From an uncultured Draconibacterium sp. (GTDB taxonomy: Bacteria; Bacteroidota; Bacteroidia; Bacteroidales; FEN-979): 24,000 nucleotides of DNA. Below are positions 14,892-21,768 of the stretch, piece after piece. The translations under genes and the position numbers were made by a program. The stretch is taken from assembly GCA_964628215.1 (NCBI GenBank), contig CAZVNF010000001.1:48485-72484 (forward strand), given 5' to 3'. Numbering within the stretch: position 1 is the stretch's first letter; each line of letters starts with the position of its first letter. The notes beneath the pieces were generated by a model. The model did not search any database. It saw nothing but the letters and a program-made list of their open reading frames with translations, and was not told where the DNA came from.

Positions 14892-14899
14892 TATATTTG
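14892..14899 (+). promoter_or_regulatory. Candidate -7 promoter box (TATATTTG) for the seven-gene envelope operon
   Basis: This is an exact TAnnTTTG, 28 nt upstream of ATG 14927. It falls inside the TTG-extended track ORF (14897), which argues for the ATG start. Confidence 0.4.
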
Positions 14900-14902
14900 C
14901 GC

Positions 14903-14922
14903 CGGGTCAAAAAAAAGACCCG
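14903..14922 (+). other. 5'-UTR hairpin cgggtc-A8-gacccg immediately upstream of the first operon gene
   Basis: The 6-bp stem is cgggtc (14903-14908) paired with gacccg (14917-14922), with an A8 loop. It ends 4 nt before ATG 14927. Confidence 0.4.
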
Positions 14923-14926
14923 AACC

Positions 14927-15307
14927 ATGATTTTAAAAAAGGCGCATACCCTCCTTATAGCATTGAGTGAATCAGTTCCTCATACAGAAATGATCAACTC
15001 GCTGCGCACCAGCGAGTATAATCTTCTTGAATCAAAAACAGGCGGGGAAATTCTTCAAACACTTTGCGAACATTCAGAGATTGATCTGATCATGATAACC
15101 GTTGATATTTCAGGAATGGATGGAATTGAAACCATTCTGGCAATAAGAAAACAGTATATAAAAATACCGATCATCCTGCTTTTAAATCATGTAACCATTG
15201 AATCAGTGCGACTCGCTCAAAACATCGGTTGTAATGAGATCATACAAGCTCCGGTTGATCATAAAACCCTAGAAGCAATCATCCTGAAATATCTTCCAAT
15301 TCCATAA
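14927..15307 (+). CDS. Stand-alone receiver-fold protein with degenerate phosphorylation site (pseudo-receiver)
   Basis: The (beta-alpha)5 receiver pattern is recognisable (DLIMITVDISGMDGIETILAIRK...IPIILLLNHV...CNEIIQAPV). A by-eye alignment to CheY puts A/L at D12/D13, T at D57 (an Asp sits 2 residues later), L/N at T87 and A at K109. Confidence 0.65.
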   Translation: MILKKAHTLLIALSESVPHTEMINSLRTSEYNLLESKTGGEILQTLCEHSEIDLIMITVDISGMDGIETILAIRKQYIKIPIILLLNHVTIESVRLAQNIGCNEIIQAPVDHKTLEAIILKYLPIP

Positions 15308-19708: not shown

Positions 19709-19732
19709 CTCATTAACCTAAATAAATATTTT

Positions 19733-21034
19733 ATGAAAAAACTAATCATCACTTTCTATTTACTGGCCTCCATTGGCATGTTGTTCAACACGGGCTGTTC
19801 ATCCCAGCCAAAAATCACCAAATTGGAAGCCACCCAAAAACTGGCAGAACTTAAAATGAAATACGATATCGCAAACACCCAGTGGTACGATATCTATACG
19901 CAAGGCTTGATCCCGGGTGCCGAAGAGGCTGGTAAGCTGATTTCACAGGCACAGAATGCGGTGGATTCGGGGGAGATGAAAAAGGCTGAAGAGTTGATCA
20001 TTCAGGCCGATACGTTGCTGAAAACCTACACCATGGCCAACCTTCCCGATTACAGTCCTCCCACTCCGCTGGCCGATCCTGCCGATCATGGCAAGGTTCA
20101 TAAGGCAACCCTCCAGGATCTCAGGGCCATGGAGTTCTATGGCGTTCCAAGATGGAATTACTGGTTCAATTTTGTGGGTAAGGCCGATGACGGAACCCTT
20201 TACATGGCTTATGCCTACATCAACCACCATGGTACGGGAAAGATAACTCCGCCCATCGTGTTTGCCATGAGCACGAGCAAGGATCCGTCCAACATTCTGA
20301 AGGTGAAATTCACCGCTGAACCCACCCTGAAAGACACCAAAGATTCGCGGATCTGGATTGTGAAAGACGGTGATAAAACCTTAACCTACACCCTGACAGA
20401 TGGCAAAGTGGGGATTAAATACGAATCAAAAGACCTTACAGTTGATGTGGCTTCGGTGATGCAATACTCTTTCTGGTATAACAAAAACGTGAACTCCGCC
20501 GAGATGATGCCGGGAGCCCCCATGGCGGGATTCGAAGAGACTGGCGCCGCTGAGGGTTACTTCCTTGTAAATGGGCTGAAGATCGTGGTTAAAGGCTTTG
20601 GAGAATCTGAGAACCTCTTCTGCGGTGGCAAGGGGGTTGACTATCGCAGTGCACTGATCAAGTACGGTAATGAATGGTGGGTGCCATTCCATACCGACCA
20701 GGCCCAGGGACTCATCTGTATGACAGGAAAATACAAGGATGCAGGACTTTTCCTCAATGGGAAATATGTGGTACCATCATCGGTTGAAGTTGTGCCGATC
20801 GAGGCAAACAAATCCTTTAAACTGAACATGAAAACTTCGGAAGGGGATCTGAACCTGATCATCACATGCTGGGGTTGGGACCCTCCCCTTTATGAACATT
20901 GGGCGACCTGCGAAGGAACTTTCAAAGAACAGAACCTGACCAACGGCTATGCCTGGCTGGAACATATCCCACAAGGCGGGGTCAATGCAAGCCCACCGGT
21001 GGGAGGAAGACAAGGAATTCCTGAAAAACAATAA
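19733..21034 (+). CDS. SPII lipoprotein: N-terminal helical region plus beta-rich domain, possibly CrtC/AttH-like (carotenoid 1,2-hydratase lipocalin-like fold)
   Basis: The lipobox is MLFNTGC|SS. DPADHGKVHKATLQDLRAMEFYGVPRWNYWFNFVGKADDGTLYMAYAYI loosely resembles the P-x-DHG-x-H...EWWY...G...DG opening of CrtC/AttH proteins. The assignment is weak. Confidence 0.3.
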   Translation: MKKLIITFYLLASIGMLFNTGCSSQPKITKLEATQKLAELKMKYDIANTQWYDIYTQGLIPGAEEAGKLISQAQNAVDSGEMKKAEELIIQADTLLKTYTMANLPDYSPPTPLADPADHGKVHKATLQDLRAMEFYGVPRWNYWFNFVGKADDGTLYMAYAYINHHGTGKITPPIVFAMSTSKDPSNILKVKFTAEPTLKDTKDSRIWIVKDGDKTLTYTLTDGKVGIKYESKDLTVDVASVMQYSFWYNKNVNSAEMMPGAPMAGFEETGAAEGYFLVNGLKIVVKGFGESENLFCGGKGVDYRSALIKYGNEWWVPFHTDQAQGLICMTGKYKDAGLFLNGKYVVPSSVEVVPIEANKSFKLNMKTSEGDLNLIITCWGWDPPLYEHWATCEGTFKEQNLTNGYAWLEHIPQGGVNASPPVGGRQGIPEKQ

Positions 21035-21075
21035 ATGAATCACTAAATCAGTAATTAATACTAAACCAATATCTT

Positions 21076-21768
21076 ATGAAAACAGCAAAAATTTATTTCG
21101 GTCTTCTGGCAGTCGTGGCTGCCTTTGTAATCACTTCGTGCGGTTCGCCGGTCACAATGACCAGTTGGAAGAACCCGGCAGACAATTCAAAAATCTCGAA
21201 AGTTATGATAATGCCCTTATTCGACAAACTAGATTACATTAAACCATTTGAACAGTCGATGGATGCCTATTTAACTGCACAGGGGATGAAGGTGCTAGGG
21301 TCACTTGATATACTGAATCCAAATGTCAAATACGCGATTTCCGAAATCAAAAAGAAGTGCGACAGTCTGGGCGCTGATGCAATTTTGATATTCGTTTACA
21401 AAGGCACCGATAAATCAGAAAGTTACGTTCCTCCCACTACTTACACAACCGGTGGGTTTGGTGGCAACTGGGGTGGCGGATACTGGGGCGGTGGTTATTG
21501 GGGTGGCGGCTACGGCGGCGGTATTTATGGGGGAAGCGGCTTCGACGACGTCAGTACCGTAACGACTGGAGGCTACTGGACAACCACCTCCGTGGTAAAC
21601 CTGAAAGCAAGTCTCTACACCAAGTCTGCGACGGATGCCGTATGGACCAGTGATATTACGGTAACCGACCCGAATTATGTGGACCAGTGTGCTACAACAA
21701 TCGCAAAGGACATATATGCAGATTGGCAGAAAAATAATCTTTTGAAATATCCATCGGTAAAAAAATAA
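21076..21768 (+). CDS. SPII lipoprotein, DUF4136-like, with an internal Gly/Trp/Tyr repeat
   Basis: The lipobox is FVITSC|GS. The internal repeat is GGFGGNWGGGYWGGGYWGGGYGGGIYGGSGF. The overall size and the layout of conserved flanks around a Gly-rich insert resemble DUF4136 lipoproteins. Confidence 0.4.
   Translation: MKTAKIYFGLLAVVAAFVITSCGSPVTMTSWKNPADNSKISKVMIMPLFDKLDYIKPFEQSMDAYLTAQGMKVLGSLDILNPNVKYAISEIKKKCDSLGADAILIFVYKGTDKSESYVPPTTYTTGGFGGNWGGGYWGGGYWGGGYGGGIYGGSGFDDVSTVTTGGYWTTTSVVNLKASLYTKSATDAVWTSDITVTDPNYVDQCATTIAKDIYADWQKNNLLKYPSVKK
21469..21528 (+). repeat. In-frame 15-nt tandem repeat encoding (W)GGGY units
   Basis: The units are tggggtggcggatac (21469-83), tggggcggtggttat (21484-98), tggggtggcggctac (21499-513) and ggcggcggtatttat (21514-28). 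Confidence 0.85.

Follow-up and report, generated by a model that had tools for sequence, protein, structure and literature searches.

A modular envelope operon of lake Bacteroidales combining LDI-like, CruF-like and AttH-fold proteins with hydrophobic-compound channels: a candidate system for isoprenoid uptake and processing

An operon of seven genes, g1 to g7, lies in the second half of the window, by which we mean the whole stretch of 24,000 nucleotides analyzed here (positions 48,485 to 72,484 of the forward strand of contig CAZVNF010000001.1, from the assembly GCA_964628215.1 of an uncultured Draconibacterium sp. of the Bacteroidales). It encodes a pseudo-receiver, two outer-membrane (OM) barrels, a polytopic inner-membrane protein, an exported protein of the linalool dehydratase/isomerase (LDI) family and two lipoproteins, and a TPR-LuxR regulator stands upstream of it (Table 1). 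A preliminary description, made from the sequence alone, had recognized three isoprenoid-hydratase-like families among these proteins and had suggested that together they take up and hydrate terpenoids. Here we report profile and structure searches and a comparison with 27 related loci that were fetched (L001 to L027) and one further locus, the P0065 contig. The carriers of the operon are metagenome-assembled genomes (MAGs) from lakes, in an anoxic setting.

Layout of the operon

The seven genes occupy positions 14927-21768 of the + strand and are separated by 19, 27, 12, 11, 24 and 41 nt; the preliminary description had given these same gaps, and they proved exact, with every open reading frame (ORF) at its place. 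Gaps of 11-41 nt imply that the operon is co-transcribed. A TTG codon at 14897, offered as the start of g1, falls within the promoter-like box TATATTTG, so the gene almost certainly starts at ATG 14927. This box had been described as the single TAnnTTTG of the operon, which does not stand as far as uniqueness is concerned, since the motif has nine copies on the + strand of the whole window, about the chance expectation, including one within g3 (16379) and one within g4 (17429). What does stand is its position, as a box is found 25-32 nt upstream of the g1 ATG in five of the eight related loci examined (L002, L003, L005, L011, and L023). The motif alone is weak evidence, but this positional conservation supports a promoter role. 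No canonical terminator was found downstream of g7. The envelope location proposed for the system was confirmed by sequence and hydropathy: signal peptides can be read in g2, g4, and g5 and lipoboxes in g6 (..NTGC) and g7 (..ITSC), giving five exported proteins out of seven, and g3 is polytopic by hydropathy analysis.

Table 1. Features of the window and of related loci (window coordinates unless a locus is named)
Feature	Position	Strand	Description
TPR-LuxR regulator	12727-14682	+	N-terminal signal/anchor, periplasmic TPR, one transmembrane helix (residues 449-472), cytoplasmic LuxR/GerE helix-turn-helix; exact start codon uncertain
TATATTTG	14892-14899	+	Promoter box of the Bacteroidota -7 type (TAnnTTTG); 35 nt before the g1 ATG
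g1	14927-15307	+	Stand-alone pseudo-receiver, 126 aa from ATG 14927; Pfam Response_reg, E 7.6e-11
g2	15327-16148	+	OM beta-barrel, divergent branch of COG4313 / Phenol_MetA_deg, partner of the Ldi-like gene; signal peptide
g3	16176-17054	+	Polytopic inner-membrane protein, Caroten_synth (CruF/DUF422) family, Pfam PF04240
g4	17067-17999	+	OM barrel, Phenol_MetA_deg / COG4313, Pfam PF13557; partner of g3
g5	18011-19708	+	Exported LDI-family protein, 565 aa; (alpha/alpha)6 barrel ~40-405, linker 411-441, beta-sandwich 480-564
g6	19733-21034	+	Lipoprotein, new family; predicted helical domain at the N-terminus (weakly YfdX-like), then a double beta-barrel with the AttH / kievitone-hydratase / CrtC fold
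g7	21076-21768	+	Lipoprotein with Gly/Trp/Tyr-rich repeat (residues ~125-155); no family match
Secreted protein	1536-3944		802 aa, C-terminal sorting domain of the type IX secretion system (T9SS)
Beta-oxidation-like cluster	4094-8553	+	Enoyl-CoA hydratase, 3-hydroxyacyl-CoA dehydrogenase, SCP-x-type thiolase (Thiolase_C_1), NMO/FabK-like enoyl reductase
hgcB	8570-8866	-	Two CxxCxxCxxxC motifs and a C-terminal CC
hgcA	8863-9990	-	Cap-helix motif NVWCAAGK; overlaps hgcB
ArsC / LMW-phosphatase-like ORF	9908-10336	-	Just upstream of hgcA
OEP ORF and DUF4143 fragment	10460-12441		319 aa with one Pfam OEP repeat matched; 154 aa
Secreted protein	22056-23761		421 aa, T9SS C-terminal sorting domain, after a 137 aa ORF
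Cytoplasmic set	L001 3491-9071; L002 11689-17537; L021 2532-9718; L022 13957-19803; P0065 contig		BcrAD_BadFG, HGD-D, CdhC-like, CooC/MinD-like, SBF-like or SfLAP genes
HAD-like / Metallophos genes	L003 17860-18852; L023 16482-17474; L013 7487-8521; L018 13262-14536; L016 12774-13841		Neighbors of Ldi or g6
Membrane protein	L022 8364-9077		237 aa, weak DsbD_2 match (E 5e-4)
Ldi-like gene	L020 10001-12529		Directly before a SASA esterase gene

Families and folds of the encoded proteins

The protein encoded by g5 is related to LDI (LinD), the first enzyme of anaerobic monoterpene degradation in Castellaniella defragrans, which is periplasmic, cofactor-free, and sensitive to O2, and in which two cysteines take part in a proposed acid-base mechanism (PMC6013536). 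That g5 is an Ldi-like exported protein was borne out by its sequence, its predicted structure and its active site. The Pfam family Ldi (PF18566; EC 4.2.1.127) matches residues 89-409 with an E-value of 2.3e-61 (208.5 bits against a cut-off of 26.1), and a profile of 39 g5 homologs matches the LDI sequences of the Protein Data Bank (PDB) at E 4e-34. The AlphaFold (AF2) model has a pLDDT of 88.4 and aligns in Foldseek with LDI 5g1u at a TM score of 0.80 (E 1.8e-14); the top 27 matches are all LDI (TM by target 0.78-0.81), with the next fold, GH127, eight orders of magnitude weaker in E-value. None of the 39 homologs, fungal ones included, departs from g5 at seven residues, Y93, N159, M161, H165, C223, E224, and C232, which correspond in the alignment to Y66, N123, M125, H129, C171, E172, and C180 of LDI. 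The cysteines of the proposed mechanism are presumably C171 and C180, with M125 also important, in keeping with the PDB entries for the mutants C171A, C171S, C180A, and M125A, which also bear out the LDI numbering.

Thus, g5 shares with LDI its Pfam family, (alpha/alpha)6 fold, Sec export and the equivalents of the active site, and its carrier comes from an anoxic setting just as the host of the O2-sensitive LDI lives without oxygen (PMC6013536). However, the two proteins are only about 16% identical in the Foldseek alignment, and g5 is longer (565 aa against roughly 370-400). It contains insertions and a disordered linker, and a further beta-sandwich stands at its C-terminus. The linker is modeled with low confidence and carries a CC pair (residues 432-433) in about half of the 39 homologs, the position being gapped in most others. 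Its gene neighborhood differs too, with genes for a dedicated OM barrel, for AttH-fold lipoproteins and for a CruF-like protein. The LDI of C. defragrans works with geraniol and geranial dehydrogenases. As a whole, the Ldi family comprises at least 117 clusters and is found in anaerobes and fungi.

In all three enzyme families or folds seen in the operon, every characterized member works without cofactors and adds water to, or removes it from, a methyl-branched isoprenoid carbon (PMC6013536; bioRxiv 10.1101/2025.10.20.683597). CruF and CrtC are two unrelated families of carotenoid 1,2-hydratases, and kievitone hydratase hydrates a prenyl group (PMC6013536). The second of these proteins in our operon, g3, passes the gathering score of Caroten_synth clearly (E 2.4e-22, 80.4 bits against a cut-off of 25) and is polytopic, as are the CruF carotenoid 1',2'-hydratases of Synechococcus and Deinococcus and the haloarchaeal bisanhydrobacterioruberin hydratase. 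It falls below three NCBIfam equivalog cut-offs for CruF (52.4 against 154.7, 46.7 against 300, and 46.3 against 400 bits), and we therefore regard it as a member of the family but not as a CruF ortholog. The g3 subfamily numbers 37 clusters, in which R79, E99, K121, D178, and D182 are invariant. Unlike CruF, g3 has no carotenoid backbone genes nearby, is always paired with a COG4313 barrel (g3-type genes adjoin one in L022, L023, L027, and the P0065 contig) and occurs in anaerobic MAGs. Carotenoid synthesis is not expected in these host lineages.

The lipoprotein g6 had been called CrtC/AttH-like, a label that holds at the level of the fold and finds no support at that of sequence profiles. 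It has no Pfam or NCBIfam match, none of 37 family members matches the CrtC models, and a single weak match to AsqO_C (E 0.036) was seen; its 84 clusters of homologs are all named hypothetical. In contrast, the AF2 model made from a 37-sequence alignment (pLDDT 90.6, pTM 0.86) retrieves kievitone hydratase 7a0t (E 2.9e-10) and AttH NE1406 2ich (E 2.6e-9) in Foldseek, with probability 1.0 and a TM score (target) of 0.53-0.54. The top 18 matches (E 3e-10 to 2e-7) are all kievitone hydratase, AttH or the pericyclases Fsa2/Phm7, and the next fold follows at E 3e-4. Therefore, of the three hydratase-family assignments, those of g5 (Ldi) and g3 (Caroten_synth) hold at sequence level and that of g6 by fold only. 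In the barrel region of g6, E268, E293, E314, W315, W316, D336, and E388 are invariant and E291 is nearly so; for CrtC, one report gives His239, Trp241, Tyr266, and Asp268 as catalytic residues (PMC4717167). Known members of the AttH-like superfamily, which includes CrtC, kievitone hydratase, AttH NE1406, and the archaeal hydroxy-GDGT synthase Hgs, form tertiary alcohols by adding water to isoprenoid C=C bonds (bioRxiv 10.1101/2025.10.20.683597). With these, g6 shares the predicted double beta-barrel, but it differs in having no detectable sequence similarity to them, in its N-terminal helical domain, in its lipid anchor and in its arrangement in tandem paralog arrays. Three loci, belonging to two phyla, have HAD-like hydrolase genes interspersed with the g6 paralogs, with N-terminal signal-like hydrophobic segments in the L003 and L013 copies, and Metallophos phosphoesterase genes lie next to Ldi or g6 in two further loci. 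These neighbors hint that some substrates may carry phosphate groups.

That the operon encodes two OM barrels of a type associated with hydrophobic substrates was upheld, for g4 directly and for g2 by transitivity. Channels of this family are 12-stranded barrels whose N-terminus is inserted into the lumen. The match of g4 to PF13557 has an E-value of 4.4e-9 (37.2 bits against a cut-off of 22). A direct Pfam match for g2 was not found, but 7 of 41 sampled members of its family (4066 representatives) match PF13557, with a best E-value of 8e-9; an hhalign comparison of the g2 and g4 families, with few sequences on each side, gave no signal. Searches of g2, g3, g4, and g6 against PDB sequences, singly or as family profiles, returned nothing relevant. 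Channels of COG4313, such as Pput2725, TcpY, and SphA, are implicated in the uptake of hydrophobic molecules and are tied genomically to the metabolism of such compounds (PMC4493636), and both barrels resemble them in mature length (about 250-290 aa). Unlike these channels, which belong to gamma-proteobacterial aerobic degraders, g2 and g4 occur in Bacteroidota and other anaerobes and have no solved-structure relative that is detectable by sequence. In L022, the extra membrane protein with a weak DsbD_2 match is encoded between the pseudo-receiver and g2; a thiol-reductant transporter at this place would fit the thiol-dependent, O2-sensitive chemistry of LDI.

Upstream of the barrels, the regulator matches TPR_12 (E 3e-23) and GerE (E 5e-4) in Pfam, its topology by hydropathy is a SusR-like layout, and its homologs give weak SusR_C and TPR_SusR matches. 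It stands directly upstream of g1 in L003, L004, L005, L006, L011, L012, L022, L023, and L026 at 47-56% identity, so the linkage to an adjacent TPR-LuxR regulator is conserved in at least eight loci. For g1 itself, the description as a pseudo-receiver was justified by the Pfam match together with the loss of the CheY pocket: across seven orthologs, the positions of D12, D13, T87, and K109 are not conserved and only a D/E is kept near the position of D57. With the receiver fold but no conserved phosphorylation pocket, g1 is a pseudo-receiver. The last gene, g7, is kept at 75-86% identity in L001, L003, L005-L008, L011, L012, and L026 and is restricted to Bacteroidales loci. A proposed relation of g7 to DUF4136 did not hold up, the sole match being at E 0.65 in one homolog.

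Modularity among related loci and genomic setting

The conserved core of the Bacteroidales loci consists of the regulator, the pseudo-receiver, g2, Ldi, one to four g6 paralogs and g7. The idea of a conserved seven-gene system survives in part, as the order g2-g3-g4-Ldi recurs elsewhere, but the genes do not form one unit: the closest relatives (L002-L006, L011, and L012, with Ldi 86-92% identical) have neither g3 nor g4, and in them g2 is followed directly by Ldi. The order regulator, pseudo-receiver, g2, g3, g4, Ldi is the same in L022 and L023, in which Ldi is just 45% identical. In the P0065 contig, which belongs to another lineage and is sigma-54-regulated, a MetA barrel, Caroten_synth, BcrAD, and Ldi are consecutive in the Pfam table. 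The g2 barrel adjoins Ldi in L002-L006, L011, L012, L014, L025, and L026, while in L018 it is in the same cluster about 3.8 kb from Ldi. The two pairings also occur separately, with the g2 barrel and Ldi alone in L025 and a MetA barrel and a CruF-like gene alone in L027; on this comparison of gene order, the operon of the window is a fusion of two barrel-plus-enzyme cassettes, extended by the lipoproteins g6 and g7.

The most persistent association is that of Ldi and g6, which is seen in Bacteroidales, Ignavibacteria (L010), Deltaproteobacteria (L013), Negativicutes (L018), and L021. The two genes adjoin in four phyla, of the 34 g6 clusters found on contigs of 10 kb or longer at least 20 have an Ldi cluster on the same contig, and g6 is often present beside Ldi as two to five paralogs (five in L013). 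Many sister loci carry a cytoplasmic set beside Ldi and g6, made up of a BcrAD_BadFG activator ATPase, two to six HGD-D subunits (of the 2-hydroxyacyl-CoA-dehydratase / benzoyl-CoA-reductase type), a CdhC-like protein (about 260-290 aa), a CooC/MinD-like ATPase, and an SBF-like or SfLAP membrane protein. None of these genes is present in this window. We know of no description of this combination. Regulators differ among the loci, being SusR-like, sigma-54 two-component or LytTR two-component, a variety that fits inducible catabolism.

The regulator and g1-g5 have a GC content of 0.375-0.44; that of the genes at 1536-11419 is 0.49-0.54, and g6, g7, and the genes that follow them stand at 0.46-0.49. 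Identities are mosaic as well, with L026, for example, having a g6 that is 88% identical to that of the window and an Ldi that is only 46% identical. Judging from sequence composition and identity, the low GC of 12727-19708 and this mosaic suggest horizontal acquisition and recombination, in which two deeply divergent Ldi alleles may have been exchanged between loci that are otherwise alike. The short OEP ORF and the DUF4143 fragment, which immediately precede the low-GC island, may be truncated genes that mark an insertion boundary. The hgcAB pair noted in the preliminary description was found on the minus strand (8570-9990), with the ArsC / LMW-phosphatase-like ORF beside it. Further upstream, the compact beta-oxidation-like cluster could handle branched acyl-CoAs; it was considered as a downstream pathway of the operon and dropped, as its genes are not syntenic with the operon in those related loci for which the upstream flank was inspected. 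On either side of the region stands a large secreted protein with a T9SS sorting domain, and neither is kept beside the operon in related loci.

Proposed function, alternatives and significance

The explanation that we favor, with middling confidence, is that the locus is a substrate-inducible envelope system for exogenous hydrophobic isoprenoids or terpenoids, built of two cassettes that each combine an OM channel with a water-adding or water-removing enzyme. The analysis establishes the gene structure, the assignments to families and folds, the conserved active site of g5, and the synteny and modularity, whereas we infer the direction of transport, the chemistry of g3 and g6, the class of substrate and the regulatory logic. 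The pairing of enzymes with barrels, the periplasm-sensing regulator, the varied regulators across phyla, the g6 paralog arrays and the anoxic hosts fit such a system. The preliminary interpretation is thus supported in part, with terpenoid uptake and hydration as its putative function. In such a system, the COG4313-type barrels g2 and g4 would admit the hydrophobic substrate across the OM. In the periplasm, g5 would use its Cys/Cys/His/Met/Tyr/Glu site for cofactor-free acid-base hydration or dehydration, and/or a 1,3-hydroxyl shift, at a methyl-branched allylic carbon, on the model of LDI acting on myrcene, linalool, and geraniol. The lipoprotein g6 might hydrate a trisubstituted isoprenoid C=C to a tertiary alcohol, or it might bind the lipid and hand it over, and similar chemistry may fall to g3 for substrate that has partitioned into the inner membrane. 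The SusR-like TPR-LuxR protein would sense a periplasmic ligand and turn the operon on, with g1 as a putative accessory regulator. In sister loci, the products are apparently passed to cytoplasmic ATP-dependent radical enzymes of the HGD/BcrAD type. As to candidate substrates, phytol, isophytol and phytadienes, acyclic carotenoids, squalene, and plant terpenes are a matter of speculation.

Several observations weigh against this explanation. The profile alignment of g5 begins at LDI residue 63, leaving unplaced the N-terminal LDI residues D39 and Y45, which are contributed across the subunit interface of a homopentamer with its active site between subunits. The cysteines of the LDI capping disulfide are not conserved in the g5 family, and this disulfide is probably absent from g5, since C223 and C232 are the only conserved cysteines of the barrel. 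In L015 and L016 the Ldi-like gene is solitary, and the one in L020, with its catalytic residues invariant, stands among NAGidase, DUF4838, and CBM9 genes besides the SASA esterase gene, so the family may not be restricted to terpenoid contexts. To these points can be added the CruF equivalog scores of g3 and the fact that g6 is tied to hydratases by fold alone. We take Fsa2/Phm7, which are Diels-Alderases and not hydratases, to share the AttH fold, going by our own reading of the match list, and other AttH-fold proteins are possibly non-catalytic binders. The direction of flux through the barrels is assumed. Additionally, the operon has no inner-membrane transporter, oxidoreductase or CoA ligase and thus no visible route into central metabolism, and all characterized CruF, CrtC, and AttH-fold Hgs enzymes are biosynthetic, not catabolic (PMC6013536; bioRxiv 10.1101/2025.10.20.683597).

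These last two points would be expected if the enzymes, in the manner of CruF, CrtC and the archaeal AttH-like Hgs, remodeled the envelope by hydrating an isoprenoid lipid of the cell itself (for instance a carotenoid-like pigment, a polyprenol or the side chain of a quinone), and the inner-membrane location of g3 and the lipid anchors of g6 and g7 would suit such a role. We nevertheless consider endogenous tailoring unlikely. Each enzyme is paired with an OM channel of a family implicated in hydrophobic uptake (PMC4493636), the regulator has a periplasmic sensor, and the system is patchy and mosaic in its distribution, each locus having two to five g6 paralogs and the GC content lying about 10 points lower than in the flanking genes. 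Backbone genes such as crtB, crtI, and crtE are also lacking. A Pfam scan of the major ORFs of the window gave no match to the backbone families (crtB/crtI), which agrees with the preliminary description, and no crtB, crtI or other crt backbone gene was found in any locus, including the surrounding 10 kb in L022, L023, L024, L026, and L027. Ordinary carotenoid tailoring, in which the cluster would always stand beside crtB/crtI, was rejected on these grounds.

Alternatively, membrane-toxic terpenes or prenylated phenolics might be neutralized in the envelope with no carbon assimilated. Kievitone hydratase detoxifies for fungi and LDI may also confer detoxification of monoterpene alcohols (PMC6013536), while no downstream catabolic genes are present in the window. 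The host lakes, for which the lake origin alone is recorded, are boreal, and their catchments likely supply them with material rich in terpenes and phenolics. For this window taken by itself, pure detoxification is plausible, but it squares poorly with dedicated import channels, and in the sister loci the same genes stand with BcrAD, two to six HGD-D genes and an SBF transporter, sets of cytoplasmic enzymes large enough to suggest further metabolism. It is less plausible in their light, and we regard it as an improbable account of the system overall.

The modularity described above also raises the question of whether the operon is a recent mosaic without joint function, in which only sub-pairs cooperate. 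The lack of g3 and g4 in the nearest relatives, the separate occurrence of the cassettes and the mosaic of GC and identities all point that way. This chance juxtaposition is, however, quite improbable given that the order g2-g3-g4-Ldi recurs in L022 and L023 despite the 45% identity of Ldi, that a MetA barrel, Caroten_synth and Ldi are clustered in the unrelated P0065 contig too, and that the short intergenic gaps imply co-transcription.

A glycan-utilization locus, with g5 as an unrecognized (alpha/alpha)6 glycoside hydrolase or lyase and g6 as a carbohydrate-binding or beta-sandwich lipoprotein of a non-canonical polysaccharide utilization locus (PUL), is very improbable, for although the barrel and beta-sandwich of g5 resemble GH127 and GH76 at a low TM of 0.3-0.6, the L020 homolog lies among esterase, NAGidase, and DUF4838 genes and the regulator is SusR-like, the closest structural match is LDI by a wide gap in E-value, the LDI-specific residues are invariant, the partners are CruF-like proteins and COG4313 barrels, and no CAZyme Pfam family was found in the window or in 10 synteny-conserved loci. 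A canonical PUL was rejected for want of a SusC/SusD pair, as no TonB-dependent receptor or SusD Pfam match was found in the operon or the sister loci examined. What the operon does share with the PULs of Bacteroidota under SusR-type regulators is a membrane-anchored regulator with periplasmic TPR and cytoplasmic helix-turn-helix domains directly upstream of an envelope uptake and processing operon; unlike them, it would rely, by analogy with the barrel family, on passive 12-strand-type barrels in place of a TonB-dependent transporter, and its substrates are presumably lipophilic.

Going beyond the inducible uptake and processing of isoprenoids at the envelope, we tentatively propose that the cassettes could be the front end of a widespread and undescribed O2-independent pathway for the isoprenoids that abound in anoxic waters. 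Candidates include phytol, isophytol, and phytadienes from chlorophyll, acyclic carotenoids from chemocline phototrophs, squalene, and conifer terpenes. Hydration, dehydration or the shifting of hydroxyls would be the work of periplasmic enzymes of the LDI-like, AttH-fold, and CruF-like kinds, and in the fuller loci the products might go to ATP-driven radical enzymes of the HGD/BcrAD type, beside which a nickel-type CdhC-like / CooC-like pair is encoded.

In the literature searched, this gene set is not described. What is new is the g6 lipoprotein family and the undescribed modular architecture, whereas the component families and folds and the periplasmic hydration of terpenes in anaerobes (Castellaniella) are known. 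In a 2018 review, LDI had just one known relative (PMC6013536); it now heads a family of at least 117 clusters, with an active site that is invariant in 39 of 39 aligned homologs. Cofactor-free hydratases that make tertiary alcohols are sought in biocatalysis (PMC6013536 and PMC12402844). Phytol and phytene derived from chlorophyll rank with the best predictors of the mercury methylation rate in the sediments of boreal lakes (PMC5309796), and with hgcAB in the host, isoprenoid use linked to methylating populations would be of ecological interest, though the connection is circumstantial. In anaerobic bacteria, the Ldi genes sit with a new family of AttH-fold lipoproteins, with CruF-like proteins and with dedicated channels for hydrophobic compounds. 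To our knowledge, little is understood of the oxygen-free attack of strictly anaerobic, fermentative bacteria on isoprenoid alkenes and alcohols (phytol, carotenoids, squalene, and plant terpenes among them), and for such an attack this locus supplies concrete, clonable candidates and a testable order of events.

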